Assembly: GCF_001447785.1 (NCBI RefSeq) | Contig: NW_015175988.1 | Coordinates: 657,286-721,285, forward strand | Direction: 5' to 3' | Length of the DNA: 64,000 nucleotides | From: Gekko japonicus | Lineage: Eukaryota | In this document: positions 20,701-59,767 of the stretch, piece by piece | How positions within the stretch are numbered: position 1 is the first letter of the stretch | How the letters are laid out: each line of letters starts with the position of its first letter | Translations under genes and position numbers: made by a program | The notes under the pieces: model-generated | Seen by the model: the letters and a program-made list of their open reading frames with translations, nothing else | Databases searched by the model: none | Told to the model about the DNA's origin: nothing

Positions 20701-23700
20701 CTTTTTGAGAATTGGCCGGCGGGGGGGGGCACGTCTGCCTTCAAAGAGTCTAGTCCGCTACTCGCCTCGCCTCCTTAGCGCCACCCACTCCCGGCATCCC
20801 TCCTTTGGCGGGCGATCTGCCTGTGTGCCGCCTGCATTCCTCCCAAGCCCTCAAGTGACATCACTTGACCTTTGACCTGGAAGTGGCATTTCTCCTGGCT
20901 CCACCCCCCATACTGCTCCACCGGGCTAAGTTTGGAGCCTTCCTCTAACGGGTGCCACTTAAGGTTGGATCTGTGCCATTGTGTGCAACTAGTAATAGTC
21001 TTAGCATATGAAGAAAAGCATTTGCATTGGAATGGACATACGATACAACTTTATCTGCATTGTGCATAAATGATAAGGGCTGTATTGACAGTATGTCATA
21101 TGACTAAAAACATATTCAATCGCATTAATATTTATTGGGTGATTCACCACATGAAGTGGCACCCACTGCAACTTATACATACCAAAGTCAGGTATGTGAG
21201 TCTGTCCTTGTATGCCATTCATGTGGTGGTCCTGTGAGCACAAGCCTCCTAAGATGGGGACAGAGCACTGATTTCATCTTTTATGGCCTGTTCCTGTCAA
21301 ACAGCGAATCCTCACAGTGGAATAACAACAAGAAATTCTTACCATCTTCAGATGCTTTTCTCTTGACATTCAAGGACCCGGCATCCATGATTGCTTCTGT
21401 AACTGTATCTTTTAAAAGACAATAATAAACATTGTGACAACATTGTGGTCCAAATGCATTGCTCAACTAGATAACACAAATACATTGTTAGTTTGAGGAA
21501 GATAAGAATGTAAGAGAAGCCAATGTTGGATCAGGCCAATGGCCCATCCAGTACAACACTCTGTCACACAGTGGCCAAAAATACCAGGTGCCATCAGGAG
21601 GTCCATCAGTGGGGCCAGGACACTAGAAGTCCTCCTACTATTTGCCCCCCCCCAAGCACCAAGAATACAGTGCATCACTTGCCCCAGACTGAGAGTTCTT
21701 GTCTATACCCTGTAGCTAATAGCCACTGATGGACCTCTGCTTCATATAATTTGAAGTCATAAGCAAGGGAAATTCTGGAACTGCTACATTCTCTTTTGGC
21801 AACCCTGTCAGGTTCCCAAGGCAAGACATTCAGAGGTGGTTTGCCATTGTCTGCCTCTGCGTAGCGATCCTGGACTTTCTTGGTGGTCTTCCATCCAAGT
21901 ACTAACTGGGGTCGACCCTGCTCAGTTTCCAAGATCTGACACAGGTCATGGCAGTGTTGCAGTAGACCTACTAATTAGAACTGGTAGGGGGAATTCACGC
22001 TCCAAAAGGGAAGGGATAGGAGGAAGATGGAGTGCATGATTGTGTGATATGTTAACCAACTCAAGAGATTTACACCAGCAGTAGTTATTAATGTTTTGAT
22101 CTGTTGGGATGTAAACTTGCTAGTATTGCATCCACAAGGTTTTAGAAGCATCTTTTTTCCTTTTCTCCCACAATATTGACTTCTGTAAAGCACCTGATAC
22201 TTTAAATTATTGTTCAATGTGGAGTCTGCAGTATTAGTTTCCCCGCCTGTGTGCATATACATACCTAAGGGCTGGCTTCTCAAAATGCAATTGATCTCAT
22301 CATAAAATCTCATCCTCCTTCTGGCACTTCCAAGCTGACTGTTGTCTTTTTGCAGTGCCCGGTATTCATATTTTAAGTTCTTGTATTTTGTCCGACACTG
22401 CTTCCAGTCTCTGTCTATTCCAACTTTCATTAACCTTCTGGCGATCTCCTCAAATATTTCCTTATTCCTTGTCGCTCCTTCAAGTGTTTGCTGGATTTCC
22501 TCATCCGACCATATATTTATCAAAGCTCTGACTTCATTATCACACCAGTGTTTTCCTACTCCTGCATCGTTAACTGTGATCACCCTAAAGTGGTTCTGTG
22601 CTTCATCCAAGGACATTTGATTTTCTGCAAGTAGATAATAAAGGAATTGGGGAAAAAAATAGATGAATATTCAGGAATTAAATACTTTGGCTCGTTTGCT
22701 GTAAAGCTGGTGGGAACTGAATACACTTCTGAGTTATAGTCACTGTGTATTTAATCAGGGAAGAGGGTCTGAACAGTATTTTTTGCATTGTCAGTGCAAA
22801 ATGGAACTGGGTACGGAAGGTCCTGCCTCACTGTTGTATATCATATATCCTCCTAACGTACTGCCCCTTAAAAGTATTTACTTCCTGGGCTGTTTTCTAA
22901 CAATGATGAAACATGTATGAGATTAGAAACAGAGACCATTAAATAATAAACCAGTGGTCCATCCTGTGGCAAAACCCGAGTCTCCAGAGTCTAAGATACA
23001 GTCTGGTCTCTAGGACTCACTTCCTATAGGAGGAGCTGAGGAGAAAAGTGGCACAGAGGATATACAGCTATTGCTGGAAATACCAGTTCTGCTTTCCTAT
23101 GGATGGATATATCTGGTCCGGGGAAGAAAAATTCCTAAATTATTAATGCTTGACTTATTAAACTCCTACTGAAACCTTGGCTGCTGGTGCAACGCAGACA
23201 GCGGCACAGCAAGTCAATATGCTCTTTGTGTAGAGAACAGAAATATACTCCCTCCCCCCACAAAAGGATCTGCAACTTCTCTGCATTCTGGATCAATAGT
23301 GCCCACACCCACCAATCACAGAGCAGCCTGCTGACAATACCGTCATGTCAGTCATACATTGAAGCAACAAAGTATGCAAATACTGGCACACTTTTTTGGT
23401 GTCATCCTGCCCTACGTACATGAAGTTCACAACGAAGGAAGGAACAAAAGAAACACGGTGCCCTCTGTTGTGGGGTGGACTGTGGCTTGCTCCATAGGAA
23501 CCCTATCACTATTACAGTCCTGGAAGCTCTGAAGGTGGGGGTTGAATCCCATTCCCCCAATAACAGACCCACAGGAAAGGAAGCATGGCTGCTCCATTCT
23601 TATTGCCCAGAAGCCCCCACAGAAAGGCCATGACCTCTACCATTCAAGAGTTCAGCACTGGGACTAGGACAAGAATGCCCTTAGGAGCAGCTTTTTGCAA

Positions 23701-38700: not shown

Positions 38701-41700
38701 GTCACTCAGTGTCAGTGCTCACTTATTAAGATTTATCAGTTACTACTGAAGGTTTCAGCTGCTTAAAAGGCATTTATTTAACGTTTTTAAAATACATTTG
38801 CTGACAGTATGAATGTTTCTTTCAGTTTTCGAAATTGCAGTGCATTGTGCTGTAATCCGTTCAAACCCCTTTGCGCACAACAAACACTTAAACTCAGATC
38901 CAAGTTTATAGGCTTTTACATTTACTTTAATTAGTAGTTTGGCACCCTCTGCTGGATAAGTCTTTGGTACTGTTTTGAGAAATGCTTGTGGTTCCTCTTT
39001 CTTTTTTAGAGGTATATCCAGAATCAGGCTGCCTAAAGTAAAGTGTAGTCACCAGTTTGCAACAGTAATGAGGAATGTCTGATCCGGTGGGCTCTAATTT
39101 AAAGCTCAAGGGCCTTCCATGGTTTATACTAATATACACACTCTGGATAGTGTTCTGGCTCTTTCTCTGTGGCTGTTTTGGTATTTTGGTATCTTTATGG
39201 CAATTCTTTAGATAAGAAATTTTCTGGGAGAAACGCACGGTAAGTGCAAAAGGGAAAGTCATGGTGGATTGCGACTGACGGCGGATCTGTCCGTCTCGCA
39301 TCTCTCCCAGCTTTCCTCTACCGAGGTCAGAGAAACAAAGGTGCTACTCCCCTCCTCCATTTTATCCTTGTAACGATTTTGTGAGTTCTTTCACTCAGTA
39401 TCCAAGGCACAGTGCATTATGGGAAACTGTAGGGGGAGGGGGGGAGAATCTACATGTGCCTAGATATTTAAAGTTCCTGAAGTCATCAGGAAGTAAAAAA
39501 CAGGCTTTGCTTTGGGGGTTTTCAGCCCCTCTCCCCAGGGAAACCTTCCCGCTGATGTTTTTGGAAATATGGAATACATGCAATATATGTTTCCTTATCA
39601 GATCTAAACTTATTTTACCTAAAGTCTATTATATGTAACTTAAATGAATCAGGATGTTTCATATTTTAGTGAACCTGTTGAATAACAGTAAAAAAATGCA
39701 CCTTACTCACCTAAATCAGTAACTTCTTCTTTTATATCTTCCTTCATGCATACAATAACTGGCTGTTCCAAATGGCCATTTACATAGTTATCTTCATCTA
39801 ATGTCTCATGGAGTGCTAGAAGTGCAAAGAGAGATGCTTATGCTGATGTTTGTTATGCTGCTTGACTGACCAACTCATGAAAGAGAAATCTGTTTCCAGG
39901 GCCAGACCCAGCAGTATGGGGACTGTTCATCTATGGTGCACATCTATTACATATGCTTATACCTCCCACCAACAAGCTATAGATCCATATATGGCATCAA
40001 ACTAATAGGTCAGCCAAGCAGCACCCCAATTCCAAAAGTCTGTAAGTCATATATGAGTCCAGCTGCAGAGCAACCAGTGTCTTCATGGAGAGAAAAAATC
40101 CATGCAAAGTAGACAGTTCCAGAAAAAGAGCCACTCTCATTTATACACACAAGCACTAGGAATATAAAAGCATACATTCTGTTTCTCAGACACAAGTGGC
40201 GTGCTGCTTATTTGGGGGGGTCTGTTTTTACTTTAAATTACTCTTTATATATAAACTGGGTAGTTTCTGCTGCCACCAGGAATTCAAAATTCCAAAAATC
40301 TCTTTCCACTGCTGGTAATGTGACCTAGGGTCTGGGCATTTCAGAGTTTTTTGTGGCCCTGAGGACGGACTGAGCTGAATTCTGGGATATACTTAAACAA
40401 AATTTGATTTATTGATTAAAGAACAAAAATAAGTTGCTGGTTATCTTAAACTGTTTTTGGAATAAAGAACTTGTAACTATAACTGGGTAGGTATCACACA
40501 CAGTCCTCCTGACATTAAAATTCCACACTGACAGGAATCTCTGTTTCATATGGGCAGCCACACTGGCTAAGCTCTTTGTCTTATGGACTCTCTCAAAACT
40601 TTAGAGTCACATAGACTCTTCTCATAGCTCTTCCACACTTCACTTTCCAAGGACACATACATAGAACTCTTTAAGTTTCCACACAGAACTCGGTCATATC
40701 ACTCACTGAATTCCCTCAACACACACTGCAAAGATTCACTCAGAACAACTCCTCCCACACTCTCAGTCATCCACCAATCACAGCACACTTGTCTCCCTCT
40801 TTCACTCTCCTTCCAGCACTGTACTCAAACCAAACATTTAAAGACACACACTCACTAAAACCAAACATTTAAAGACACACACTCACTAAAACGAGGAATC
40901 ATTACACCATACTTATGCATCTTCTCTCCAATTTTGTTTCTCCTGATGAGGTTGCTGCAGATGGTGGTTGCCATACTGCCACCACCGCAAGTTAAAACAA
41001 CCTCATTGGCAGTCTGGTCCAACATGAAACTGGCAGTCCACCACCCAACCGCTGCCTCTTCAACCACCATCACCACTAGCATTGCTTCTTGCCTGTCTTT
41101 GACCTATTTCAGATTTTGCACCCATACTGTAGGAACTTAGAATGATGTTTCTAGGGACCTTCCTTCCTCATACTGTCCAGTACACTGGTATGTGCAGTGT
41201 ACATGTCCAGAGAACAAATAATACACATATATAAATTGCTGTGAAAACAGACAGGGGGAAAAGTCTTTCCCCTTCAGAATTCCCTCCTGCTGCCCTGACC
41301 CGGATAGCCCAGGCTAAGGAGGGCCGACTTCGGCAAGTACTTGGAAGGGCAACCTCCAAGGAATACCAGAGGCGGGATGCAGAGTCAGGCTAATCAAATC
41401 ACCTCTCTGAAAAATGTCCAAGCCCCTAGTAGGTGTTGCCAGAAGTCAACCATGACTTCTAGGCAAGCACACAAACACACACACACACACACACACACAA
41501 TTTTTTTAAAAAAATTCCCTCCTGCTGGCCCAAACTTCAAAAGTTGTCTAGGCCAGTTGACAGCCCTTATATATGTAGCAGAATTGACAGAATCTGTATT
41601 TTACTCAAGAAATTAATGCAGAATGACTCTGCGTTTACCTGTGTCTGCCACTTTCTGTGTGTCTGTGAGCCCCAGATCTCCTGACACACTGCTAACTGAA

Positions 41701-44700
41701 TCTTCCTCGCCAGCATCTCTGTGCATTTCTGGGTAAAATGTTAAAGGTTATGGCATTACTTTTTTTTTTAAAGTTACAACTGAGGACATTCTATTACAGT
41801 TCTTCTAAGAGCCTTTAAAATAAATCAAGCAAGAAATGTTTTAGCTGTTCCACTCTGAGTCCCAAGTAGTCAAAACTGAGTAGTTCTCATTGATAAAGCA
41901 CCATCACTAGGCAGTCAGAGAGGAGCCTCATCCAGTGAGGGATTTACAGCTTTAGTTTCAAGACACAACACAGAAAGAAAAGGTGAACGTGAAACCTATT
42001 ACTAAGCCCCAGCCAATCTGACTACGTAACACATATGTTTGTGTGTCCCTAGGCTATTCTCATCAAGTCTTATTTTACTTTAACTTACAAGCTCATGAGT
42101 AACATATTATATGAAAGGCATCAGTCATATATAAACTGTCTTCTAACTACTTAAAGTTATGACAGTTAATGCATTACCAGCTAACTGGAATTCTGCTTCC
42201 AGAAAGTGTTCACTAGACTACTGTGTTTCTATACTACTTGCTTTGAATATTTGGTTGTCATTGTTGAAAAATATTAATATGCTGTACCTTGCCTAGGAGG
42301 AAAAAAGCATCAGACTGATTTGGAACAGATTGTAAATGAACATCAGTACTGAGACTATCCAAGGAGACTATCACCTGGGTGCCTCAGTGTTACTACCCCT
42401 GTACATCTAATTCGGTTGAAAAACAGGAGTGGACAATCACATTCATGATATATCACACCCGGCTCTTTGGGTGTGCTAAAATCATTGTGCTAATAGTTTT
42501 CAGATCAGTGGTTTTGGGTTTTAAAAAAATTATTATCATTGTTATTATTTTATTAGATGTACTAATTGCCCTGTCCCAGCTTACACCGAGCTCTGGGCGA
42601 TGTACAAAAGGTAGCAATGCCATAAAATTTACAAAAACATTAAAATTCATTATACAACTTAATAAAAATTACAACACAGAGTAAAAGATCCAAGATGGCA
42701 TCCTATAATATTATTTATCCCAATTCTGGACTACCAGCCCTTTTCTGGGCAGTCACTGGGGGTGTGGAGGGGGAGGAATTTGTGAATTTCCTGCATTGGG
42801 CAGGGGGTTGGACTAGATGACCCTGGAAGGTCCTTCCAACTCTATGGTTCTGTGATTCTATTTTATTTCGGTTTCAATTGGAAGTGATTTTTAACTACTA
42901 TTGTAAGTCGCCTTGAACCATGAGAAAAGGCAGTGTATAAAAGTTTTAATAGACCAATCAATATTCAAGTGTGATGTAGTGTTCAGAGTGTTGGACTAGG
43001 ATCTTGGAGACCCACGTTCGAATTCTCACTCTGCCATGGAAGCTGTCTGGGTGACCTTGGGTCAGTCACATCCTCTCAGCCCAACCTACATCACAGGGTG
43101 GTTGTGAAGATAAAATGGAGGAGAGGAGAGGATGTAGATCGCCATTATAAATAAAGTAAATAAATAAAAATAATTTCTGCAGCTTTGAATTTGTTTGAAT
43201 ATAGCATTGAAATCACACTTTATTTTTCTCTAATTATATATTTGAGTTCAAGTATTTGTTGGTTTGGAGTCATAAAATTAACACTGGGTACTTTAAAAAT
43301 GTTATTCACTAAATATGTCAAAATAAGTATGTCAAATCAGATCATGCTCTATTTCAGGTACTGGAAAATTTTATGATTCATATTTTCCAAGAAAATCCAC
43401 ATCACTGGTCTCTGTTCAATTTTGTTATTTGTACTATAAATTTAAAAAGAAATACATGAAAGTTTACATTCTTGTGTGTTGGATGTTGTTGTTTTCATGC
43501 CTTTTAAATACATATAATTCTACTTTATAACTAAGAAACAAAATAAGTTTGGTAACTAAAATCCTTACCTCTGCAATTTCTTTCTATTTTAACTTCTGTC
43601 CGTTCTTCTGGCTTCTTGCTGTTGTTTTCTGATCTGCTTGTTTTATCTGCACTGCCGTGTCCCAGAATAGCATCCAGTTCTCTAAAAAACTTCATACTTT
43701 TGCTTGTGTTGCCTGAAAACTGAGCATTTTTTACACTCTTATATTCATGTTTTAGATTTTTATATTTTGTCCTGCACTGTTTCCAATCCCTATCAATTCC
43801 AAACTTTTGAAGTCTAGCAGCAACATGTTCAAATATTCTTTTGTTTCTCACTGTTCCTTCCAGTTGCTGCTGGATGCTTTTGTCTGACCACACGCGTATT
43901 AGAGCTCTCACTTCGTTGACAGTCCAATGTTTTCCTCCTTCATTTGCTACAGACGGAATAAAGGGTGGGTGTTTTGAAGTATCTAGTATTGCTGTTGGGT
44001 TACCTGCATCAGGTAGGATAGGAGAGAGACATAGATATGTATTACCTGCATTGGGTAGGGTGGGGTCAGGATCAGGTAGAGACAGTGAGAGAGAGAAGTT
44101 TTGTTAACTTTTTTCCCTTGCCAAGAATATTCAGGCAAACCTCAAAAAACAAACTCAAGATACAGGACAGATTTTTAATATACACGACTGATTTTAAAAT
44201 ATTTCACACTAGGTTAGTATTATAAGGATTATGAAAGTTAAAAAAAAAAAATCCCAAAGAGAAATGGAAGCTGACTGTTCTGTGATGGTCGTTGTCTCTG
44301 AATTCCATATGTACAATTAAGCCTACTATACAGGAATAACACTTTGAGTTAAGGGCAAATCAGCCACCCGTCTGTAACAGTTTTTTGAAGCAGTACATAC
44401 TCTTTCAGTACTGATTTTTGCATTTCACTGTTAAGTAGATTTGAGTTGTTCCATATATTAACTAGTTAATTATCTGAATACCGGAAATTATGTGGGATAA
44501 GTTGGTTATGTGGTCATATACACACATACTTAACAGTGCAATCCTAAGCAGAGCTACACCATTTTATATGTGTAAAAGTGAATGGGCTTAGAAGGGTATA
44601 ACTCTGTTTAGGATTGCACTGAACATTCTTGTTATTTCTGTGTTTCAGATTAATATATAGAAGATATCTGTTATACAACAGCTGGGATCCAGAGTACTCC

Positions 44701-47700
44701 ATGCGTGCATATAATTGTTTTTCAGCTTCCTTTTTCTGGTAGCAACACACTGAAAAGCCTTCCTAAAGTCAAAGTATTTTACTTTGACTTTGCCTTCCTG
44801 AACATCAGGGACCGTTTAGTACCACATGAGATGTGGAAGAGTACTGCTAGAAGACAATCCTACAAGCATGTGGATGAGCTCTATGCATAAGAGGAGCTGC
44901 CTGGATCCTGGACTGTGAAGGGAAAGGAGCTTGAGTATGTTTTGTGTATCCCCCCCCCAAACTAATCTCCCTCTGAATAGCATATGTGTCCCATTTGTTT
45001 ATCTTCATGCACTCCTATAAAAGCAAATAATTATGTCTTATAGTTTATTAAGAAACTACCACCAGTTTTGCACAAGTAGACAATGAGAAACCAACCTCAG
45101 ATCTTAGCTACACACTCTGTAGCAGTGGTCCACAATGTGGAGCCCATTATCCAAAGCAAAGAGCCAGTCCTGGTTTCCCTCCACCTCACTGGAGCATGAG
45201 ATATCTCAGAAGAGCCCAGGAAGCATGATTAACAACCGCCTTCATCATAGGAGGATGTTTATAATGCAGCTTCCTGATATTTTGAAAGCAGTCCCAACCC
45301 CCGGGCATCTATTTTTTGTGGTTGGTTGTACCCTCTGTGACAGCCATTTTGTGATAGCATCCCTTCATATTCTTAGAATTCCAAAAGTGCCCACAGGTTT
45401 GACAAGGTTGGGGACGCTTACTCTATAGTCTTCTGCAATTGTTTCTTCCATTGCTTACACAACACACAGAATCATCATGGTGTAATAGAGTGTCAGACTA
45501 GGTTCTTGGAAACTTCAGTTTGAATCCCCACTCTGCCATGGAAGCTTGCTGGGTGAGCTTGGGCCAGTCACTCGCTCTCAGTCTAACCTACCTCACAAGG
45601 ATAAAATAGAGGAGAATGATGTAAGCTACTTTAGGTCCCCGTTGGGGAGAAAGGCAGGATATAAATAAATTTAAAATAATTTAAAGAAATATAATTCCTG
45701 TGCTCTTGAAAAGACCTAGGATATTTCTTCTCACGCACACATCATCATTCATTACCTAGCTGGATGGGCCTGCAATGAGAAATAAAAAGTAATGGATTTG
45801 CAGAAGCGTCTTCCTCATCTTTAAGTAAGGCTTCACCTGGAAGGAAAAAAAGAAGAGATTTAGTATGTAGAAAAGTCAGAGAACATGTTGAAATATACTG
45901 TGAATGATGTACATGGTAGATTCTGGTAACGACCCACCATCACTGGATACTTCATTTACATCTTCTGGATAGGACTAGGGTTCATGACTACCTTAAACAT
46001 TTAATCTTAAATCATTTAAAAAATAGCTGAGACTGAGAATGGAACATGGACTAAAGAAGAGTCAGAAGTAAAGGACTCCTTGCAGTTCATTTCCAGAAAG
46101 GGAAATGTTTTCTACTTAGTGTATCATTATGTTGTCAGGCTGGATGTTACAGGGAGGTCATGTAACCCAGCAAAGGACTGTTCATCCTCTTACATTCCTT
46201 AGGAGCATCAATGAGAAGCTTCTGGTTCCCTTGAAACCACTATATACACATAAGGCGTGTTGCTTTCACTTGTCTCTCCTGATCAGTCTCAATATTATTA
46301 GCTACTTTAATGTATTATAGTGTATCGAGGGCATTGATGGAGATGTTTTCTGATACAACCAGTATGTTTGGCAAAACATATGCAAGCCAAGCAAGCTTTA
46401 ATCATAACAAATTCTGGGTAGTCAGTATATTGCCAAACAATGATGGGCTGTCCTTCCTCTATGAATCAGGAAAAAAACACAACAAAACAGCTGTTTGGTG
46501 CCTCTGCATAAAACATCCAGAAAATCTCACTGTTCTAACAAACTGACACTAAAAGCGGTTCAGGCAGTTTTCAATTTATGTTTTTGGAATCCGGATGCTT
46601 AGTTGAACTGAAATTAATAAGCTATGTAACTCCAAAACTGTCCAATTACAGTTGATGTGTTTTGTTCAGTCAGTTGAGTTAGGAACTCTGCCAAAAACAT
46701 ACAGGAATAAAACCTGCAGTGGTAAAATGTGGCCCACTCCAGGAAGAAATGAAAGTGTGTAGTTATTCACAAAAGTGGCTACAAGTGCCTTCTTCTTCTG
46801 CAATTCAGTCCCGTTCATACTGGCCTTTCTTCATGCAGTCAGGCATCCCTGTGCACAGGGGTGAGGAGGAATTTGACATCATGAAACAATCCACAGTTCA
46901 TAAAAGCCAAATCTGCTTGTTTCATTAAGATAGAATGATATTTCTGTAAGAACTTGACATGGATTAACAGTGCTATCCCTCAGCAGAGTTGCACATTTCT
47001 AATATGTTAATTCTGCTTATGATGGCACTGTAAACCTCCTTCAACCTTCTTCTAGGAGAAATCTCTGGAACATGAGTAGAGCAGGGCTTTTTCCTGGCAC
47101 GGGATCACAGCCCTAATAGCCAGTGTCTGTATTGGATGCTTCATTGCTGTATTCTCTTTGATGACAATACTACTTCATGAACATATGTGTGCAACACAGA
47201 GACTGAGCTCTTGCAGGAAATTTTAATGTACTAACTAGCCCTAAAATGTAACTGAATATCACTCTGTGGAAGAGTTAAAAGAATGCAGAAGGGGGAAAGG
47301 CACTTAATCCCCCCTCCCCAATAAACATCTGTGTGATCCATGGTAATGGTTCCTTTAAATTAGGGGTCTTTGTTTTTCATGTGAATGCTAGAAAATGAGG
47401 TGTGGTGGGCTTATATAGCTAAAAGGTTTTGAGAGAAGGATTGAAAATTGTGTTGCTGTAGTCCAAGCGACAGCCAAAAAATGTGAATTGTCTAAGCAAG
47501 ACCTCTAGACATTTTCAACTGTTTCTTTGGTAATTTCTCTCAAAGGGATGATGACTTCTTGGCAATTCTTTTGAAATGCAGCCCCCCCCTCCCCAACATG
47601 TAACCTTAATTAGTATTTGTTTTTGGAAGTCTATAGGTAATGACTTTGCATTTTTTATTTAACACACACACACACACAGCCAAGTGTGATGGGCATTTTT

Positions 47701-50700
47701 TGCCCTTATTGTTGAAAGTAGATATCTGACAGAGAATGCTTTAAAAAGACAAAACAGAACAGCAATTTAAAATATTCTCCCCAAATGTGATGCAAAAGTA
47801 AATCTCATATTAGAGAGAAATAGTACAGCAACTGCCTTCTTTTATTATTTTTGTGGGGGGGCTGTTTGTTATTTTTGGCCTTTCTAAATTTTATTTTCGG
47901 GTTTTTCTTTTTAAGGAACAAGCAAAAATAGATTTCATGGCATGCCATCTTGGAGGGCTGGGGGTAAAAGATGACAGCTGTCAGAGTACGAAGCTGCTTG
48001 GTGTGACATTTCAGTCCTTGACAATCAAATGACTTAAAAACCACATTGTACCTGTGTGTTTTTTTTTAATTTTTAGCCTGTTAGCAGTCATCCAGAGCTC
48101 ATGGGGGGGGGGGGGGGGATGAACTGCAAAAGGAACAACATTTCCTCCTCATTCCCAATGTGCGACTTTCAATCCTGGACCTTTTTATTTTCATTCCAGC
48201 TCTAGATAAATTTCTCATTTAGAGCAGCTGAAATCTTTGTACCGTACATTACTCATCCCACAATTATTTTTTCCCTTGCACTGGACAGCTGCAAAAAATG
48301 TGATATCAGCTGTAAAAGATAAATCACCAGTAAAAAAAAGCAATAGAACCGGAGGGAGGGCCCTGCTGGGTTTGCTCCCCCTTTACAGAAATAGTATCTC
48401 CTGAATCTGACTGTAGCAGCTAGTTTAACTTCATCAGGTTTATGTATTTATAGAAACGCTAGTGTGCATAGCCACCCCACCCTGCACGCACACAAACACA
48501 CGCCGACAAGGAGGGAGTGAATTAAGTCAGTTTGTTCTACCAACTGTGCCATCTGTGGTGTATTATGTGGCTTTGAATCATGGAAGCCTCTAGGTATTTT
48601 AGGTAAAAAAAATAAGAAGGAAAGAGAGCTTTTTTTTACCTTCATTGTTCTCTCTGGTGGCATTTATGATCTCATTTGCTGAGCACCTGCCGTTTTCTTC
48701 CTCTTTTAATTGTGTGACAGGTTCATGTTGCAATATGGCATCCAGTTCATGGAAAAACTTCATGGTCTTTGTAGCATCTCCTGAGTTGTGGGCATATTTA
48801 ACTGTCCTATATTCATATTTCAGGTTTTTATACTTTGCACGACATTGTTTCCAGTCTCTGCAGATCCCCAACTCCTGCAGCCTTTTAGCAATGTAAATAA
48901 ATATCCCTTTATTCCTCAGTGTTCCATGGAGTTGCTTTCTGATATTTTTTTCTGACCAGACGCTTAACAAGGCTTTAACCTCCTCTTCAGTCCAGTGCCT
49001 TCCTGCTCCACTCTCCATGTTGAAAGTGACCTGGAAATGATTCACTATTTCTAGCCAAGATTTTGTTTCCTAGGAAACCAGACGGCTGGTTGTCAGTAAG
49101 CTCTACAGAGATGAAAGGATCTAGTTTTACTGGCTCAAGCTGCCTGAGGGGAGTAACTTGAGAAACTGCCAAATAAGCAGGTTCTGCATTTGAGGCAGGG
49201 AAAATAAAGCAGCTCAGGCGCAAATGATTGCAAAGTACTTTAATAATCGGCATCTAGAATAAGCTGCCTTCTGTTAGATAGAATTCTGAGCATAACCAAG
49301 TTATTTAAAACCCCTTTGCAGTAGACACGCTCTGATAAAAAACCTGGATTTGTTCTACGGTGTATTTATCCTGAATCATGATAGATTTGCACCCTGTTTC
49401 TTTTAAGAATTGCTAGCAATCCAGTGCCTTTCATTTAAATAGAATTTTTATTCTATAGCCCTAGGAGCACTACCAAAGTCTGTGATTCATAGACCACACG
49501 TGGCACAATCCTGTGCATGTGTACTCAGAAATAAGTCCCACTATCTTCAATAGTGCTTACTCCCACGTAAGTGTACATAAGACTGTACCCTTAATTCTGC
49601 AAGTTTACATCTGTTCAAGGTTACTCTGTTGTAAAGACAAAGCTACCAGTTTAGGTAAATTATGGACACGCATTTAGACATTTCATGGTTCGTATCAACA
49701 GAAAAGCTATAATTTTGTATTTTGAGAATTTGTGTTAGTACTTTTCTCAGGTAAAGAGCATTTGATTCTAGCAATTATATACTATTTTACAAACAAGAGC
49801 TTTTCTGTAAATCTATTAAAAACTCAGCATATCAATTCTTGCTGAATCTGTATGCATGCTACTAAAAACATACTTTGTTATGTATGTTTGAGGGGCCATG
49901 GCTCAGTGGTAGAGCATCTGCTTGGCATGCAGAAGGCCCTAGATTCAGTCCCTAGCATCTTCGGTTAGAAAAAGAAGAGGATAGATTGGATTTATACCCT
50001 GCCCTTCACTACCCAAAGGAGTCTCAGAGCGGCTTACAAACTCCTTTCCCTCCCCCTCCCCACAACAGATACTCTGTGAGGTAGGTGGGGCTGAGAGAGC
50101 TCTGACAGAAATTGTTCTTTTTCAAGAACAGCTCTGACAGAACTATGGCTTGCCCAAGGTCATCCAGCCGCTGCAAGTGGAGGAGTGGGGAATCAAACCT
50201 GGTTCTCCCAGATCAGAGTCCGCGCACTTAACCACTACACCAAACTGGCTCTAAAAGGGTCAAGTAGTAGGTGATGGGAAAGATGTCTGCCTGAGACCCT
50301 CGAGAGCCACTTGCCAGTCAGAGTAGACGTTACTGACCTTGAGGGACCCAAGAGTCTAATTCATGTGTTCATATGTATAAGGCAAACTGCAAGTTCCCTT
50401 AAACAACCAGTATGCTACTTTACATGTATGAAAAGAGGGTACCTGAGATCTCTGAATGTTGAATAAGACTCTCCGTTTATCCAGTGTGCATAGAAGGAGT
50501 TACATATCAGCAAGTATCGTTTGTGCAGAAAGCACATGTCTCAGGGGTAGAGCATCTGTTTTTCAGGCAGAATATTCCAGATTCAACCCATGGCATCTCC
50601 AGTTAAAAAGATCAGGTAGGAGATAATGTGAAAGACCATTACCCAAGACCTTGGAGAGCCTTTGCCAGTCAGGGCAGAACGCACTTGTGAAGAACTGGGC

Positions 50701-53700
50701 TAGTGATTCTGAAGAAGAAGCAGAAGAAAAATTGATAAATTGCTTGGATGTAACTTGCATGTTTTTTTAATCCCAGGCCAGAGTTGGCTGTCAACACTGT
50801 AACCAAGTTTAGGCCCTGGCAGCTATATAAGTACTATTTTGTTCCTCTTTGGAGAATACAACCTCACTTGGGGAAGGGGGGTTTCCACAGCCATCCATAC
50901 AGATTTATTTCCTTGCTATTTGTCACACATTCAATTGGATATTTATTTAGATTACCTCAGTCAATGCTGAATTGCAGTTCTCTGTCTTTTCTGGAGGACT
51001 TTTAGATTAAAAGGCATGATTGGAAGATTGAGTGCAATGGCAGTTGATGTTGTTTGGGGAGAGAGGGGGGGGAGTTTCCTGGGGAATCTGGAGGGGGGGA
51101 AACCTTAATGATGCTTCTGTGTGAAACAGACTAGGAAATGTCTGAATAGCAATAAATTACAGTGTATACATTTAATAGCCTCAGGTTTGATATGAAAAGC
51201 AAATAAAGTTATTAAAGGTTAGGAGACTGTGAATGAAACCCCAACCAGTGTGACTACTTTTTAGGTCCACTGAAGTCAAATGAGTTTAGAATGGTATAAC
51301 TGTTTAGGATTATGCTGTGAGGGGTGTTTTTCAGAGGTCATTTGTTACACTGCTTAGTTGGTTTGTTGGGACTGAAATGCTCTAAACCTTCATAATTTTG
51401 TTCTGTTATTAATTACGATTTATATTGGATACACTTCTGTTACAGTCTAACCTTTTTTCTTTTTTTTTTAAGAAAACCCAATTCCTATGTCTGTAGTCTG
51501 TCCATTATTTCAGGTTTAGCTGGTTATAGTCTCTTGTAGACCAAAAATACGAGAATTGTAAAAATGTATATCCATTTTAACCTTGAAAAGGGTAAATTAG
51601 TGGACACAGAGTTGTGGATGCCCCATTCAAAACCCAAACTGCTGCTTAAACACAGAGTTTATTTAAAGGCAGGAAAAACAAGGGGGTTGGGGAGTTTAAA
51701 GTATATTAAGTGTCCTGAAGTCAGGACAAAGGGAAAAGTAAGCCTCTTTACTCTCTGAATTCATTAGCTCCGGGGAAGTCTGGATACTGTCTGTAGATTA
51801 GAGCCAGGGGTCATTTCGTAGAAAAAGAGCTAGGGGAACTCATTAGCATAACTCATTAGCATATGCCACACACCCTGACATCACCGGAAGTGTGTCATAA
51901 GGCCACACACCCCGCCCCCAATGGTCCCGGCCGCTGGCGCCGGCCTTGTAGCTCTACTGCCGAACCCCATGAGGGGCCCGGCGGTGGACCTGCAAGGCCG
52001 GCGGGAGTGCAAGGAAGCCCCGCGAAGGCCCTCCCTGGTCCCAGGCAGGCAGGGGTGGGGAGAGGCAGGGAGGAAGCAACTTACCCTCCCTCTTCTCCTG
52101 CCTCCTCCTGGCTGAATGAGGGCCTGAAGCGGGGCGGCCGGAAGCGGGGGGCGGGGCTTCATCATGTGCCCCGTCCCCCATACCTCACTCGGGGGAACTG
52201 CGATCCCCCGTGATTCCCCCCGAAATGACCTCTGATTAGAGCAAGCATAAAACATCCCTGTGGAGTTAGTGCTGAAGTGAAATATGTGGTGAGGTCTCCC
52301 TCCTTTATGGGTTCAAGGAAGCAGCCTTTCCTCACTGCAACAGCAGAAGTCCCATGAGCACTGTGGATCAAAGGCCCACACCCGAAGATGGCCACTCTTC
52401 TGCCAACTGCCCTTCGCACTGTTCCACAGGCTGTCTTCTCCAGAACCTCTTCTTCCATCGAAAAGCCCTCCCCTCCTCAAGGAAAAACCAACAACCCAGA
52501 CTTCTGCTCCTCTCACTCTCTCTCCCTTGGAGTTAACCCCTCTTCTCCCATCCTGTTGCCTGGCAACCCACTCACCCAGCCTATGTCATAATCACCTCCC
52601 TCTAGAGGGCAGTGTTTCCAGACCCACTTTGCAAGGAACAACAGGTTGCAAACATTTTGAATAACAAGCAAAACATTTTTAAAGGCTCACATACAGTGTT
52701 CCCTCTAAGCTGAGTTAGTGTGAGCTAGCTCACAGTTTTTTAGTCTCCAGCTCACACATTTTTGTCTTAGCTCAGGAAGGATGGCTTCAGAGCAAACTAA
52801 TGTATGCAATAGCCAAATCACTTGCTCACAACTTTAATGCCAGTCGCTCACAAAGTAGAATTTTTGCACACAAAACTCCACAACTTAGAGGGAACATTGC
52901 TTACATATATGGCACCTGACAATGATTTACCCTAGGGTTGCCAGCTCTGGGTTGGGGAATTCCTAGAGATTTTAGGGGGGGAGAGCCTGGAGAGAACAGC
53001 GGGGTATAATGCCGTAAAATCAACCTTCCCACGCAGCCATTTTTCCAGGGGAACTGGAGACCAGTTGTAATTGTGGGAGATCTCCAGTTACCAACTGGAC
53101 ACTGGCAACCCTAGTTTGCCCATGTGTGCTTGAAGAAATAGTGGGGAAATGGATTGCACAGTACTTCACATGGTAGCAGAGAGCTCTAAGACAGAAAATA
53201 TGCATGACCTTTGGAATATGTCTGAAATCTGCTGGACTTCTCCAGGCGCTGCTTATCCCATTCCTGAGTGTCCAGATCAGAAGACTGCATTCAGAAATGT
53301 ACTGAGCCTACAAGTTCAAACCAACAAGAGACAAGCATTGTCTTCTCAGGAAGATGTTTTAATGTGGGATCTCCTGGCTTTGATTCTTCACTTCTTTCCA
53401 TAGTGAGGGGAGTGGATGACAGGATTTGTGACTTCAGTCTCCTAGTCTGAGGGGGCAAATACTCAGTTGGATTCAGTCACTTTATTCACTTAATTTCACC
53501 CAATTCACCTCCTTACTACAACTCCCATTTTATGTTGCTTTTGTGCATTCAGGTGCCATAATCGCCAGCACAACCTTTTTGGTAGTCAAAGGGAACCCCC
53601 TCCTTCTAATTGTCTGAACAGACTCTAAATGGTCTGATCAAACTTAGTGAAATACTGATTTCGGAGACCCAAACGTTTGAACTACATGCTGGAGAGAGAT

Positions 53701-54829
53701 GATAATTTGGAGGCAATTTGGTGGTAAAATACATCTGTCCTACTTTCATCTTTGGTAAATGTATTTTCTGGGGATTTTTAGTATTGGTTCAAAACCCTGC
53801 TCGAATATAAGCATTACTAGGACTTACGACATTATGCGATTCATTAATTCATGTGCTTTAAGATTTTCTTCTGTTCCTGCAGAGGTCAAGAGAGTGCTGG
53901 GATTGTGACAAGTGATGGAGAATCAGCCCAATCCTTCAAAGTGCACAAGGTAAAATGGAAAGGTTGTTTATTATTTATGTTCTTAAAAGAAGTAGTAATA
54001 AAGAATCTGACCTCTTCTTACCATCTTAAAAAGATTATTCATAAAACTGAGGAGCATATACCACACATAAATGAGGGATATTTATTTATCTATTTATCGT
54101 ATGGCAAATGAGGGATAAACTTGATGGTGAGAACTTCTATTGTAAGCTTTAAGGAATTGTGTATAGAAGAATAAATAGGTGCAGGCAGTAGACAGAGAGA
54201 AACTGGAAGACAGGCATTAGCGCTTATATGGGCCCAAAATCTGAAGAAAGTTATTTTATAATCTGCTTTCTCTTTCTTAGTCATTTGTCTTTGATATGAG
54301 CATCCTCCTAACCAGTTATCCTACAATATATTTTAATGATGTATGTTTAGGAGGAGTGTTGATTTTAATAGTTTTATAATGTCATTATATGTTGTATGTT
54401 TTGAAGGGCAGAAAGACGGGGGTATAAACTCTGTAAATAAATGCATAAATATCTGTCCCGATGGCGGGACTGCACCCCCACCCCCACCGACTGCACCCCC
54501 AACCCCACCGAAACCAGCCACCCCGGCGCAACGCCGGGGAGAAGGAGCCCGCACCCACCGACGCTTACCGGGGCCGCCCATCGAGCGGGGAGGAGTGGGG
54601 ACGGCGGGGGTCGGTCCTCCGGCGGCCGAGAGAGGAGCGGGCGGGGCAGAGGCACGGCGGGGAGGGGAACCCGACACAGCAGGGGAAACGGGCGGCCGCG
54701 CTGGAAACGACAGCGGACGGCCTCGTACAGGCTCCGGGCTGGGAGACTCTGGAGCGGATGCCGCGGCAAGAGAGGCCGCGCCGGGCCAGAGGCCCGGCTC
54801 GAGGGCACGCCCACGCAGCCGGGCTCCAT
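17686..54829 (-). CDS. Antisense gene interleaved with PPAT: triple Myb/SANT-like (trihelix, MSANTD-type) DNA-binding protein, predicted 14 exons, ~788 aa
   Basis: Three domain exons plus short exons with good splice signals that join without stops: 54829-54569, 49069-48640, 45836-45756, 44003-43569, 41728-41639, 39815-39711, 37287-37207, 28624-28553, 24728-24661, 23096-23021, 22624-22265, 21408-21343, 19054-18867, 17739-17686 (2367 nt in total). Confidence 0.75.
18867..19054 (-). CDS. Trihelix gene penultimate exon (188 nt)
   Basis: ccttttccttacag| (E)[62 protein letters not shown] |gttagt; 62 codons open, phase 1-0. Confidence 0.68.
21343..21408 (-). CDS. Trihelix gene exon (66 nt)
   Basis: tgtcttttaaaag| (D)[21 protein letters not shown] |gtaaga; includes the basic patch KRK. 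Confidence 0.65.
22265..22624 (-). CDS. Trihelix gene exon with Myb/SANT-like domain 3
   Basis: tctacttgcag| [57 protein letters not shown]...[17 protein letters not shown]...[14 protein letters not shown] |gtatgt; 360 nt, phase 1-1. Confidence 0.9.
23021..23096 (-). CDS. Trihelix gene linker exon (76 nt)
   Basis: ccatccatag| [25 protein letters not shown] |gtgagt; phase 0-1 restores the frame into the domain-3 exon. Confidence 0.5.
24323..24642. mobile_element. hAT-type non-autonomous DNA transposon
   Basis: TIR CAGTGGTGGCGAACCT/AGGTTCGCCATCACTG; TSD CATTAGGC/CGTTAGGC. Confidence 0.85.
24661..24728 (-). CDS. Trihelix gene linker exon (68 nt)
   Basis: ttttgcttacag| (G)[22 protein letters not shown] |gtgagt; phase 1-0, paired with the next exon. 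Confidence 0.55.
25270..26610 (-). mobile_element. Decayed L2-type LINE reverse-transcriptase fragment
   Basis: PILF...[12 protein letters not shown]...[13 protein letters not shown]...[15 protein letters not shown] (RT YADD motif) and FSVAAPT...LP...[15 protein letters not shown]-terminus; frameshifted. Confidence 0.85.
28553..28624 (-). CDS. Trihelix gene linker exon (72 nt, GC donor)
   Basis: ctctctcttcttttacag| (D)[26 protein letters not shown]|gcaagt; phase 1-1. Confidence 0.65.
29521..29940. mobile_element. hAT-type non-autonomous element family B
   Basis: TIR CAGGGGTCATTTC/GAAATGACCCCTG; TSD GTTTCTAC/GTTTCTAT; ctcattagcat subterminal repeats. Confidence 0.85.
30358..30690. mobile_element. 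hAT-like element inserted in a 5S-derived SINE
   Basis: CATGGCC...GGCCCTG ends; TSD GCGAGGGG/GTGAGGGG; internal direct repeat agtgcctagggcccac. Confidence 0.7.
35860..36115 (+). mobile_element. L2-type LINE 3' fragment (similar remnant at ~31100-31470)
   Basis: cctgggtacttaaatgaccgtctc...ttttcagctgtggcatctcacctgtgaaac, resembling the L2 C-terminus. Confidence 0.6.
36282..36721. mobile_element. Non-autonomous DNA transposon (CAGGGC-TIR family related to B)
   Basis: CAGGGCTATTTT...AAAAAGCCCTG ends; shares gtggcctaatatgc/aatgagttcctg motifs with copies at 15620-15800 and 57177-57571. Confidence 0.75.
36951..37156 (-). mobile_element. hAT-type MITE family A, copy 4
   Basis: Reverse orientation; TSD GTCTCTTT. 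Confidence 0.9.
37207..37287 (-). CDS. Trihelix gene linker exon (81 nt)
   Basis: tttacacag| (E)[26 protein letters not shown] |gtgagg; phase 1-1. Confidence 0.7.
39711..39815 (-). CDS. Trihelix gene linker exon (105 nt)
   Basis: ctctttgcacttctag| (A)[34 protein letters not shown] |gtgagt; phase 1-1. Confidence 0.72.
40195..40906 (-). mobile_element. Solo LTR of a related subfamily
   Basis: Shares ctgctgccaccaggaatt..aaattccaaa, gtggccctgagga.ggactg and the aaacatttaaaga...atcattaca end with the 58734 LTR. Confidence 0.7.
41639..41728 (-). CDS. Trihelix gene linker exon (90 nt)
   Basis: ttttacccag| (E)[29 protein letters not shown] |gtaaac; phase 1-1. Confidence 0.7.
42968..43170 (+). mobile_element. 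Older tRNA-derived SINE (related copies ~955-1140, 9995-10227, 12375-12620, 17262-17440, 31735-31945, 45475-45670)
   Basis: gggtgaccttgggtcagtcac...cctacctcacaggg...gataaaatggagg core with an (AAAT)n tail. Confidence 0.75.
43569..44003 (-). CDS. Trihelix gene exon with Myb/SANT-like domain 2
   Basis: gatgcag| (G)[57 protein letters not shown]...[17 protein letters not shown]...FFRELDAIL...NCR |gtaagg; 435 nt, phase 1-1. Confidence 0.9.
44533..44621. repeat. Short hairpin element family (gcaatcct...aggattgc; many copies, e.g. 12760-12930, 19545-19625, 37695-37780, 49503-49590)
   Basis: cagtgcaatcctaagcagag...ctctgtttaggattgcactg, ~90-bp imperfect palindromes. Confidence 0.7.
45123..45420. 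mobile_element. hAT-like non-autonomous element (diverged)
   Basis: Starts CAGTGGTCC; TSD CTCTGTAG/CTCTATAG. Confidence 0.6.
45756..45836 (-). CDS. Trihelix gene linker exon (81 nt)
   Basis: ttttttccttccag| (G)[26 protein letters not shown] |gtaatg; phase 1-1. Confidence 0.7.
   Translation of the reverse strand: MKPYLKMRKTLLQIHYFLFLIAGPSS
48640..49069 (-). CDS. Trihelix gene exon with Myb/SANT-like domain 1
   Basis: Branch-point-like tactgac then tttcctag|GAA; ...[48 protein letters not shown]...[17 protein letters not shown]...FFHELDAIL...NNE G|gtaaaa. Confidence 0.9.
49970..50252 (-). mobile_element. tRNA-derived SINE (Squam3-like) inserted in a tRNA-Ala-derived SINE
   Basis: Reverse complement of the 2898 element; the host SINE head (49892-49965) and tail (50253-50385) flank it. 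Confidence 0.8.
51805..52234. mobile_element. hAT-type non-autonomous element family B (GC-rich core)
   Basis: TIR CAGGGGTCATTTCG/CGAAATGACCTCTG; perfect TSD ATTAGAGC. Confidence 0.88.
52694..52899 (+). mobile_element. hAT-type MITE family A, copy 5
   Basis: TSD CTCACATA/CTTACATA. Confidence 0.88.
52932..53113. mobile_element. TAGGGTTGCC-TIR MITE (related copies ~19117-19437 and ~56397-56642)
   Basis: TAGGGTTGCCAG...CTGGCAACCCTAG terminal inverted repeats. Confidence 0.75.
53883..53949 (+). CDS. PPAT: PPAT exon 2
   Basis: ttcctgcag|A GGT CAA GAG... = (R)[22 protein letters not shown]|gtaaaa. Confidence 0.96.
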
Positions 54830-55230
54830 GGACAGGAGCCCGGCGGGCCGGAAGGGAGGCCACACCCCGGGTAGGGCGTCCCAGGCTTTATGAGGGGGCG
54901 GAGCCAGAACGAGAGGGGAGGCAGGACAGGACTGATGCACACTGGGAGGAGGAAGGGGAAATAAAAAGGAGGGAACGGAGGAGGCCGGGGATGACTCCTG
55001 GATGTGAGAAAGCACAGAGAGAGACACGGGGAGAACATCCAGCAGGGAGTGGTAAAGGAAAGGTGACGTAACCGCCTTTACACTCCAGGTGTCTGAGGCC
55101 ATTACCCTCCGGGGGGGAGGAGCCAGGAGAAGGCGGGTGAAACAAAGTGGCTGAACCCGGGCCTTTGGGGAGCTCGAGCGAAGAGGAGAGTGACGGGTCC
55201 TCCTCGGGCTCCTGTGACAATATCATATCC
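54460..55230 (-). promoter_or_regulatory. Intronic CpG island, probable promoter of the antisense trihelix gene
   Basis: CpG-dense with no repeat I recognise; GC box 54895-54903, CATAAA on the minus strand at 54887-54892, ETS-like CCGGAAG ~54848, CRE-like TGACGTAA 55064-55071; followed by a minus-strand ATG and a strong donor. Confidence 0.65.
54569..54829 (-). CDS. Trihelix gene putative exon 1 (Pro/Arg-rich N-terminus)
   Basis: tccATGG start; 87 codons [11 protein letters not shown]...[25 protein letters not shown]...RWAAP ending at CCG|gtaagc in phase 0, matching the phase-0 acceptor at 49069; lies in a CpG island. Confidence 0.55.
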
Positions 55231-56150
55231 CACTTCTGCCTCTTATCCAAAACCATCCCCAAATTCCCTTGTTTTCTAATGCATTATTTGCAGTTCCTCA
55301 GGAGTTTTCGAATTGCAATAGTTTGAAAACAAATAATTTGAAAATAAAACAATATCCTTTTTCCTTCACTCACAAGAAAGGTGCAGTAATACCATGGTAA
55401 AAAGGAGCACTCAGAATCTATCATATTAAACAACAGGTCAACTATAGCTGACTTGTATCAGGAAGAGGTTAACAAGCTCCGGACTTAAAGTACTTAAATT
55501 GTGATTCATACATATTTTGACCCTGCATTTCACTAGTCCAGTCACCAATCTGCCTTTATTATCTAAGGAGAAGGCAGTGTGCTTTAGCCTTGCAATAACT
55601 ATGTGAGGTAACTTAGCTTAAGGGCCCAATGAGATATGATAGTTCCATATAACTATTCAATTCATGTACAAAGAAGGAGCATGCAAGTGAGAAGCATAGG
55701 AGCCCACTGCCATCACCCCCGTGTCCATATCATATACCCTGTTCAGTTCTCCTCAGCTGCACTTTAAAACGAGATGCACTTTTTCCTCACTGAGGGGAGG
55801 TGGGGTTTTAAACAGCTTTAGTGCTCCTTCCCCATACTCCCCTTTTTGCAGTTAAAGTTGGACCACCAAAGGCTGAAACAGCTCTGTGGTTCAAAACGTG
55901 GAACAACTATTGTCACATACAGTTTTGGCCCAAGGTTTGCCACAGAATATTGTTATTATTAAATCATAGACCAGAAAGCCCTTGGCCTGTTGAGGAAGAC
56001 ACGTTTTTTTAAAGATTGTAGGCTCACTTTACTGATCAGACAGAAAAAGCTGAAGTGACAGGAATTTTTGTGAGTGTGTTTGTCTTCATGTATATTGACA
56101 AGTTTTAGTTTGCCTGGGGTCGCCTACTCAATTCCCTTTCTGTTTTACAG

Positions 56151-56357
56151 GGAATGGGTCTGGTTAATCATGTGTTCAGTGAAGACAGTCTGAAAAAGTT
56201 GTATGTTTCAAATCTTGGAATTGGCCACACAAGATACTCCACCTCGGGTGTCTCTGTACTAGATAACTGCCAACCATTTGTTGTGGAAACACTGCACGGG
56301 AAGATTGCTGTGGCCCACAATGGAGAGTTGACAAATGCAGCACGACTGAGAAGAAAG
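56151..56357 (+). CDS. PPAT: PPAT exon 3
   Basis: GMGLVNHVF...[11 protein letters not shown]...NCQPF...[15 protein letters not shown]; canonical AG/GT. Confidence 0.97.
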
Positions 56358-57176: not shown

Positions 57177-57571
57177 CAGGGCTCTTTGTAGAAAAAGCCC
57201 AGCAGGAACTCATTACCATAATAGGTCACACCCAACAGCAGGAACTCATTAGCATATTGGGTCACACCCCTGACAGCACAGCTCATTAGCACATTAGGCC
57301 ACACCCCCATGTTACCAGAAGTGTGGTTATCCAGCCACACCCACCTTTTGCTTGTTATTCTGTTTACCTTGTTTGTTGTCAAAATCCAGGGCCTGTTTTT
57401 GTAGCAGGAACTCCTTTGCATGTTAGGCCACACGCCCCTAATGTAGCCAATCCTAATGAGTTACTGCTGTTGGGTGTGGCCTATTATGCTAATGAGTTCC
57501 TGCTGGGCGTGGCCAACTTGGGAGCCAGCCGGAACTCCGTTCCTGTGCGTTCCTGCTCAAAAATAGCCGTG
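57177..57571. mobile_element. Two adjacent copies or fragments of the CAGGGC-TIR family
   Basis: Same motifs as 36282-36721 and 15620-15800. Confidence 0.7.
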
Positions 57572-58733: not shown

Positions 58734-59767
58734 TGTGACATCCTCCTTAATGGGGAGACTATTTATCCTTTAAAACACACTCTGTTCACATAAACTTTTA
58801 GTAGATTACTGCTGCCACCAGGAATTAAAAATTCCAAATCATTCTATTATGGTAGAATGACCCTGTGTCTGGGCAGTTCAGAGGACTATGTGGCCCTGAG
58901 GAAGGACTGTTCTGACTGCTGGGATAAGTTTAAACAAATAATGTTTTATTTATAAAAGAACAAAATAGGTTTCTGGGTATTCTTGAACTGTTGCTGAAGA
59001 AAGGTAGTTATAAATATTACTGATAAAGCTTGACGTCGCACACTGTCTCTCAAAACACCAAAACTCAACTCTGACAGCCTTAGTCGCACAGGCTAAACTC
59101 TGCCTCTCTTAGGCTCTGGGGACCCGGGCCGGATATCACAGGGGGGAGGTGTGGCTAATTGCCCCAGCGCAGTTTGATTCACAATTACGCGATCAGACGT
59201 GCCGGCGGCACAGCACGGGTCCTTCCCTTGTCGCCAGCGGGTAAACGAGGGACTGGAGGGGAATGCCGTGCACTGGTGCAATCACACCATGGGCGTCTGG
59301 AGGCAGCCCATGGCAAACGTTTACTAGTACCTTGGAGGTACTAGTTTTTAAATGCGCATTGTCGGCGGTAAGCCACGGGTGCGTTCCAGTTCCCAGATAT
59401 TGGGGTGTGATCGCACCTGGATAATCCGCCCACCTTCCGTGCCTCTCCCGTGGCAACTTTGCCATGTGACCGGGGCCTTAGTCACACAAGCTAAACTGTC
59501 TGTCTTAGCCACACACGCTAAACAGTTTGTCTTAGCCACACAGGATAAACTGCTTCTTCTGCCTTACAGGCTAAAAACAACCACCCTCCACACTCGTCTC
59601 ACCCTCCCAAAAAAAACACACAATCACCTCAGAGACACCCCTCCTCCCATATGCTCAGTCATGAGCCAATGACATCACACTCATCTCCCTCCATCAGTCT
59701 CCTTACATTACTGCAGTCAAACTAAACATTTAAAGAAACACATACACCAAAACATGAAATCATTACA
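58734..59767 (-). mobile_element. Solo LTR (1034 bp)
   Basis: TG...CA termini with a perfect 5-bp TSD ACCAC; minus-strand AATAAA at ~58945; homologous to 40195-40906. Confidence 0.82.

Follow-up and report, generated by a model that had tools for sequence, protein, structure and literature searches.

A solo LTR within PPAT, and ten antisense exons predicted to splice onto PAICS, in a gecko genome

The window analysed here is a 64,000-nucleotide stretch of the Gekko japonicus genome (G000:C16278:657286-721285 in the 2.49-Gb vertebrate assembly that was searched), which contains the first exons of PPAT on the plus strand and of PAICS on the minus strand. PPAT intron 1 holds an antisense gene of ten predicted coding exons with Myb/SANT-like (trihelix) repeats, and PPAT intron 2 holds a CpG-rich block that is, with very little doubt, the solo long terminal repeat (LTR) of a retrotransposon. 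The ten exons are predicted to splice onto PAICS, probably giving a nuclear, DNA-binding long form of that enzyme beside a stand-alone trihelix protein. Databases already attach this ancient trihelix module to PAICS, and the module itself appears unstudied. In protein comparison, the proteins of the window are closest to gecko models.

The antisense trihelix gene and its predicted junction with PAICS

As judged from homologue mapping, the antisense gene in PPAT intron 1 is real, with ten coding exons predicted from 49069 to 18867. All have AG acceptors and GT donors except for one GC donor, which is needed to keep the frame across the GC-AG intron after the 28553 exon. The exons, and a signal that may end the stand-alone form, are as follows.

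48640–49069, minus: first coding exon, with acceptor at 49069 (alternative at 49030), the conserved ATG at 49018 and Myb/SANT-like repeat 1
45756–45836, minus: coding exon of 81 nt, phase 1-1
43569–44045, minus: coding exon with Myb/SANT-like repeat 2, also present in the bird-like contig L044
41639–41728, minus: coding exon, acidic linker, from the homologue map
39711–39815, minus: coding exon, linker, from the homologue map
37207–37287, minus: coding exon, linker, from the homologue map
28553–28624, minus: coding exon, linker, with the GC donor at 28552-28551
22265–22624, minus: coding exon with Myb/SANT-like repeat 3, from a profile match
21343–21408, minus: coding exon with the first basic cluster (KRK) of a bipartite motif resembling a nuclear localization signal (NLS), from a motif scan
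18867–19054, minus: last exon of the trihelix part, ending in phase 0; predicted to splice to 5940 or to stop two codons into the intron
18817–18822, minus: AATAAA, 44 nt past the last donor; candidate signal for intronic polyadenylation, which would end the stand-alone form

Homologous models largely agree on the start, with 258 of the 261 that hold the start motif beginning at the equivalent of ATG 49018. The exceptions are two Pogona models that enter at the equivalent of acceptor 49030, and a gray-whale model with 17 codons after 49069, 16 of which are identical. This last match supports acceptor 49069, a phase-0 site already named in the initial annotation, which follows an AG and is in frame with the Myb/SANT exon. 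The match also implies that an exon older than the LTR lies further upstream. Directly ahead of the conserved ATG, 51 nt (49019–49069, minus) are strongly constrained, though almost no model includes them; they are either part of a hidden N-terminal extension or regulatory. P0366, a mammal-like copy of the first exon that is degenerate and frameshifted and includes the 17 upstream codons, is possibly a pseudogene. Identity over the first 100 amino acids (aa) is 99–100% in lizards, 94% in owl, 89% in whale and 74% in gar. One metagenome locus was found (L044), covering six internal exons only.

Each of the three repeat exons matches the PF13837 profile at 67–74 bits, compared with a cut-off of 27, and a weak match to the plant GT-1 structure was obtained (E 1.8e-4). 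AlphaFold predicts three confident helical domains (pLDDT ~70–89) joined by disordered linkers. The bipartite NLS-like motif, KRK-x8-13-basic, follows the last repeat in 250 of 255 proteins and occurs in 51 of 3500 shuffles. Repeat number is four in amphibians and two in whale. Phylogenetic analysis places 37 repeats of the orthologues apart from 16 other PF13837 repeats (82/92 support, from few columns), with repeat 1 forming one clade from gar to whale (100/98 support). A link to Harbinger elements did not emerge: no transposase was detected in 17 frames scanned from seven related genomic loci, and the tree was built without Harbinger references.

The PAICS end of the predicted junction comprises the following features.

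3376–3573, minus: next PAICS exon; the exons after it lie beyond the left edge of the window (L011)
5886–5940, minus: PAICS exon, with acceptor at 5940 and 12 open codons, then the normal PAICS ATG (5904)
5700–7400, no strand: CpG island with the shared PPAT/PAICS promoter, which a long transcript would cross
6959–7086, plus: coding part of PPAT exon 1, with the joined PPAT frame open

When 18867 is spliced to 5940, on the same strand and with canonical sites, 12 codons lead into the PAICS ATG. The long PAICS form is predicted to have a 12.9-kb intron (18866–5941) that encloses PPAT exon 1 and the shared promoter. The joined frame, which opens at ATG 49018 and extends over six PAICS exons, gives 903 aa with 0 stops, and 841 of 900 aligned residues are identical to the gecko fused model P0146. 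The full product would be about 1071 aa; one later PAICS exon, which holds 11 N, was left out of the join. That the window genome is in frame at the junction was checked independently of annotation.

Fused models, combining PF13837 with PF01259 and PF00731, account for 94 of the best 120 of 402 homologues (93 by motif, together with P0052), and stand-alone models for 26. All fetched proteins together include 178 fused models, 170 with a clean join and 8 with a long linker; isoforms of one species are counted separately in these totals, so the models are not independent. Isoform sets that differ in internal exons share the same junction. The fused models originate from several pipelines. Caecilians, frogs, lizards, snakes and birds are represented, together with a salamander-like model, and fused models also occur in catfish (KAF4070927.1), sturgeon (MGH0157828.1), a sperm-whale cluster (XP_023987761.2) and, in partial form, Mus spicilegus. 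Stand-alone models also come from tortoise, gar, goby and Tasmanian devil, and for pigeon, Pogona and sperm whale newer fused models stand alongside earlier stand-alone ones. The stretch from the junction to the PAICS Met measures 7–12 codons and keeps the frame in every case (136 sauropsid models with 31 distinct sequences). As a rule, RefSeq models are built on introns seen in RNA-seq. The predicted models point to a fused RNA that probably exists in many vertebrates, while the case for a selected function of the fused protein appears evenly balanced. A description of a trihelix-PAICS fusion was not found in the open full-text literature searched, where most matches were judged by their listing; a term search of PMC10571971 gave no occurrence of 'paics'.

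Several observations weigh against the fusion. None of 13 matches among short proteins that could span the junction does so. A Logan contig of 1304 nt that encodes several joined exons finishes with the stand-alone tail (P0263), and the Micrurus UniRef protein P0204 has another short tail at its end. Stand-alone models make up 26 of the 120 best homologues, and for several snakes and birds the listed members include no fused model. Six of the 8 long-linker fused models bridge through the antisense of PPAT exon 1, so predictors can join the two neighbouring genes as an artefact. Because 5' exons of short PAICS (P0125, P0150, P0297, P0298) use the 5940 acceptor as well, its existence is no evidence for a fusion. 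The 7–12 codon series is ascertained because only in-frame junctions become protein models, leaving the window genome as one unbiased in-frame case. The fused models of catfish and sturgeon lack the NLS-like motif. In addition, AlphaFold predicts the PAICS half poorly (pLDDT mostly <50), so nothing is shown on packing; sequence and fold searches match octameric human PAICS and, weakly, plant GT-1, with the fold search adding nothing beyond PAICS.

Many of these points fit an alternative in which the stand-alone trihelix transcription factor is the functional product and the PAICS fusion is low-level read-through splicing or a predictor merge. Reading on past 18867 gives a stop after two codons and a 635-aa product, with AATAAA 44 nt past the donor, and the RNA-like Logan contig carries this stand-alone tail. 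The short matches that fail to span the junction, the bridged or long linkers of 8/178 fused models and the acceptor common to short PAICS 5' exons favour it as well. However, the last donor and its phase are conserved, whereas the short stand-alone tails vary from lineage to lineage; the 170 clean fused models share the same junction across many lineages and pipelines, and the frame is maintained across linkers of 7–12 codons. We regard this alternative as somewhat unlikely, and prefer the reading in which a fused long PAICS would exist beside the stand-alone protein.

A solo LTR in PPAT intron 2 and the start of the antisense transcript

The initial annotation had placed the promoter and first exon of the antisense gene in a CpG-rich block at 54460–55230. 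The block is present, with a CpG observed/expected ratio (o/e) of 0.74 against a window average of 0.29, and it lies inside PPAT intron 2 as described. Its identification as a host CpG-island promoter fails, since the block is a dispersed repeat with LTR ends and a target duplication, its o/e falls inside the range of its family and its CpG decay equals that of the closest copies.

53883–53949, plus: PPAT exon 2, in the joined PPAT frame
54454–55219, plus: solo LTR of a Gypsy-type retrotransposon, 766 bp, in PPAT intron 2; the former 'CpG island'
54569–54829, minus: candidate exon 1 of the initial annotation, wholly inside the LTR antisense strand
56151–56357, plus: PPAT exon 3, in the joined PPAT frame

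The LTR (54454-55219) ends in TG...CA and has an ATATC target duplication on both flanks; 5-bp duplications also border 10 of the 11 other copies with both ends readable. A genome search with 54400–55400 returned 44 matches including the query itself, drawn from 40 scored of 211 candidates, with 68–92% identity and all confined to the block. Paired LTR copies stand ~4.8 kb apart on contigs C1128 and C12845. Between the pair in L019 (G000:C1128:781600-788600), the internal frame is ordered SCAN 228–314, CCHC, integrase 648–998 and reverse transcriptase (RT) 1140–1251; the internal frames of L020 gave no Pfam match. The internal frame follows the plus end of the LTR and an AATAAA lies near 54960, which sets the LTR sense on the plus strand. 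The motifs of the initial annotation therefore sit on the LTR antisense strand.

These motifs are all present: CATAAA at 54892, a GC box at 54895, ETS-like sites at 54848/54853, a half-site of the cyclic AMP response element at 55064/55069, a minus-strand ATG at 54829 and an exon end at 54569 followed by a GTAAGC donor, with 261 nt giving phase 0. Family comparison, covering 22 LTR stretches from 20 fetched loci, indicates that they are largely ordinary. The donor after 54569 is kept in 14 of the 15 other stretches that cover it, and ATAAAG occurs in 10/21, with variants in the others. ATG 54829 is kept in 7/21 other stretches, and the two closest copies carry ACG. CpG o/e is 0.42–0.93 in other copies, and CpG decay is symmetric with the two closest (5 vs 5, 8 vs 8), the closest showing 3.8% non-CpG divergence. 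The donor, the TATA-like motif and the CpG richness are thus traits of the LTR family, and by these sequence comparisons no feature sets the window copy apart as a protected promoter. As grounds for abandoning its promoter, the initial annotation had named an island that is methylated or derived from a transposable element and lacks minus-strand transcription; derivation from a transposable element is what we find.

Across the family (L019, L020-L038), the antisense strand carries a conserved TATA-like motif, a GC box and a strong splice donor. This suggests that it may serve as a promoter directed out of the element, from which chimeric transcripts could arise at other sites in the genome. 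Young LTRs in reptile genomes can mimic CpG-island promoters, including a TATA-like motif and a splice donor.

ATG 54829 does not hold up as the coding start, with 0 homologues among 376 candidates, in contrast to the 49018-equivalent start of almost all models. It has a weak Kozak context (-3 T), and its 87-codon frame has no protein match among the 376 candidates, which comprise longer proteins only. A second ATG at 54581 would open a 31-codon out-of-frame upstream open reading frame (uORF) overlapping ATG 49018. This uORF bears on a further alternative, in which the act of transcription matters: a long transcript crossing PPAT exon 1 and the shared promoter would switch off PPAT and short PAICS, its own translation being poor. 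The predicted last intron contains both promoters, and, if the LTR exon were used, the uORF would overlap the main ATG. Against this, repeat 1 is conserved at 89/100 residues from gecko to whale and the NLS-like motif is conserved, both arguing for protein function, and the uORF lies inside the LTR and is not kept in most copies. We consider this account improbable.

The solo LTR cannot be the ancestral promoter of the antisense gene, because the gene is older than the insertion by hundreds of millions of years; at most it is a lineage-specific antisense start. Co-option in the gecko lineage, with the LTR antisense strand serving as promoter and first exon and splicing 54569 to 49069 across PPAT exon 2, would be such a case. 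LTR promoters are often co-opted. Here the TATA-like motif, the GC box and the donor stand in the expected order, the donor is the sole minus-strand GTRAG donor between 55372 and 54300, and its phase matches the 49069 acceptor. A Pogona 5'-exon peptide also aligns weakly at 55277–55230, in unique DNA just beyond the LTR (7-22/1000 shuffles within PPAT intron 2); this match is not significant over wider ranges (36-90/1000 in 15 kb, 27/150 in 85 kb), and no donor follows it. The ordinary family motifs, the equal CpG decay, the ACG of the two closest copies and the far greater age of the gene all speak against co-option, which we regard as doubtful. It is nevertheless compatible with our preferred reading of a long PAICS form, as an added, lineage-specific start.

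Other candidate starts were considered. For the upstream peptides of whale P0454 and crane P0288, matching within 85 kb was not significant (55/150 and 115/150 shuffles, respectively), and with the Pogona, whale and crane 5' peptides no upstream exon splicing to 49069 was found in up to 85 kb searched. The GC-rich 51.8–52.2 kb and CpG-rich 59.1–59.5 kb segments were rejected as promoters, both being repeats. A CpG island ~11 kb right of the window was rejected as far as tested: this island (L018 ~1520-2260; G000:C16278:732719-733458), downstream of PPAT, is 98% identical to G000:C4512:326943-327683 and, going by a translated motif, carries a CD9-exon-1-like sequence. RNA-run shares of 0.09–0.24 were set aside as evidence, the queried stretch holding the LTR and the high-copy repeat 51805–52235. 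High-copy repeats at 51805–52235, 57177–57571 and 59108–59485 are ~95%, 96% and 90% identical to many copies, and the first two contain short internal repeats.

Gene organization at the shared promoter and the human counterpart

The initial annotation had proposed a three-gene unit of PAICS, PPAT and an antisense trihelix gene. The overlap itself is real, with at least 42 kb of PPAT covered (6959–49069), while the proposed start has proved to be a young solo LTR. Two overlapping genes are more likely than three, because the trihelix exons share the strand of PAICS and their predicted splicing leads into it. Interleaving of the two genes probably holds, through PPAT exon 1 inside the predicted long-PAICS intron; the route originally described, through PPAT exon 2, rests on the LTR exon. 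The gene count at a textbook bidirectional promoter would be corrected accordingly.

PAICS is present as one copy on the minus strand, with its ATG at 5904 and a single match in the genome search. A match at 86-3 was considered as a second copy and rejected, as it is the next PAICS exon. A PAICS coding exon ~3.9 kb left of the window (L011) has an 11-N gap with a short duplicated overlap, which is an assembly artefact. At PPAT exon 1, the donor at 7087–7088 reads GG and not GT; this is likely an assembly error in GC-rich sequence, because the joined PPAT frame is otherwise intact. PPAT-PAICS is entered as a divergent pair in a table of PMC2871058.

A human counterpart is listed antisense within an intron of ENST00000264220, a transcript of what we take to be PPAT, where it is called 'unprocessed' though it is syntenic, and the listing has the same gene id on a mitochondrial pseudogene row. 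In supplements 3 and 8 of PMC6886504 the entry covers four PhyloCSF regions at chr4:56410528-56419951(+), under the annotation of a transcribed unprocessed Myb/SANT-like pseudogene. By eye, three of the listed peptides correspond to repeats 1 and 2, and one of the three has a substitution within the conserved core. A human 51-nt PhyloCSF region was considered as the 17 codons upstream of the ATG and dropped, as the region, judged by the listed peptide, most likely starts at or just after the ATG. The human entry is not linked to PAICS there: no mention of PAICS turned up in the supplementary files searched, nor of PPAT in nine of them.

Proposed mechanism and comparison with known systems

In the mechanism we propose, a minus-strand transcript would start upstream of 49069 and run antisense through at least 42 kb of PPAT, a path whose geometry is given by the map. 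At 18867, intronic polyadenylation at AATAAA would yield the 635-aa stand-alone protein, whereas transcription across PPAT exon 1 and the shared promoter, with splicing to 5940, would yield the ~1071-aa long PAICS. The long protein may co-assemble with ordinary PAICS subunits in the octamer; its NLS could bring the complex into the nucleus, and the trihelix repeats could tether it to DNA. Tethering would then couple the chemistry or sensing of carboxyaminoimidazole ribonucleotide (CAIR) and succinylaminoimidazolecarboxamide ribotide (SAICAR) to transcription, with transcriptional interference at the shared promoter as a possible side effect. In its most far-reaching form, this proposal would give bony vertebrates a one-chain purine sensor for more than 400 million years: a trihelix-NLS-PAICS protein would sit on chromatin as part of the octamer and translate local CAIR/SAICAR levels into transcriptional control, possibly of the PPAT/PAICS promoter that its own transcript crosses. 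Mammals would have shortened this protein, with two repeats left in whale and one in a mouse model, and humans would have lost its function. We consider this extended form distinctly unlikely.

PAICS, a cancer target, is among the core enzymes of purine synthesis. If the proposal is correct, a long isoform that is conserved and has both an NLS and DNA-binding domains would offer a direct route from PAICS to chromatin, and PAICS knockouts in chicken, Xenopus, fish and mouse would remove two products, with humans differing. PAICS is reported to interact with HDAC1/2 (PMC7338359).

The retrotransposon resembles Gmr1-like Gypsy elements, which have SCAN in Gag, in its SCAN, CCHC, integrase before RT (L019), TG...CA LTR and 5-bp duplication; integrase before RT is a mark of that group. 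Unlike those elements, the window copy is a solo LTR only. The gene pair itself is that of the known GPAT-AIRC (PPAT-PAICS) head-to-head arrangement with a bidirectional promoter and a shared CpG island, to which the window adds a predicted second, far-upstream route into PAICS that crosses PPAT. Long PAICS isoforms predicted by RefSeq/Ensembl (XP_048364839.1, XP_053259081.1, XP_064917039.1, XP_030047277.1, XP_023987761.2) have the same junction and 2-4 PF13837 repeats followed by full PAICS; these are automated models, and no paper on them was found in the open full-text literature searched.

MSANTD1-4 and NAIF1, Harbinger-derived Myb-like genes, are likewise vertebrate trihelix-domain genes, and PAICS and PPAT are not mentioned in their description (PMC9392472). 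At the bicistronic Myb/SANT-HSPA14 locus, a trihelix gene shares a transcript with a housekeeping gene (PMC6886504 supplement 4). In contrast to both, the present gene has three repeats and a predicted in-frame enzyme fusion. A functional parallel comes from yeast, where Bas1 is a Myb-type protein. There, SZMP (SAICAR), a product of PAICS, promotes the Bas1-Pho2 interaction at purine genes and so regulates their transcription through DNA-binding proteins (PMC6356901). Bas1 and Pho2 are separate proteins, whereas here enzyme and DNA-binding domains would form one chain, making the likeness one of analogy and not of homology.

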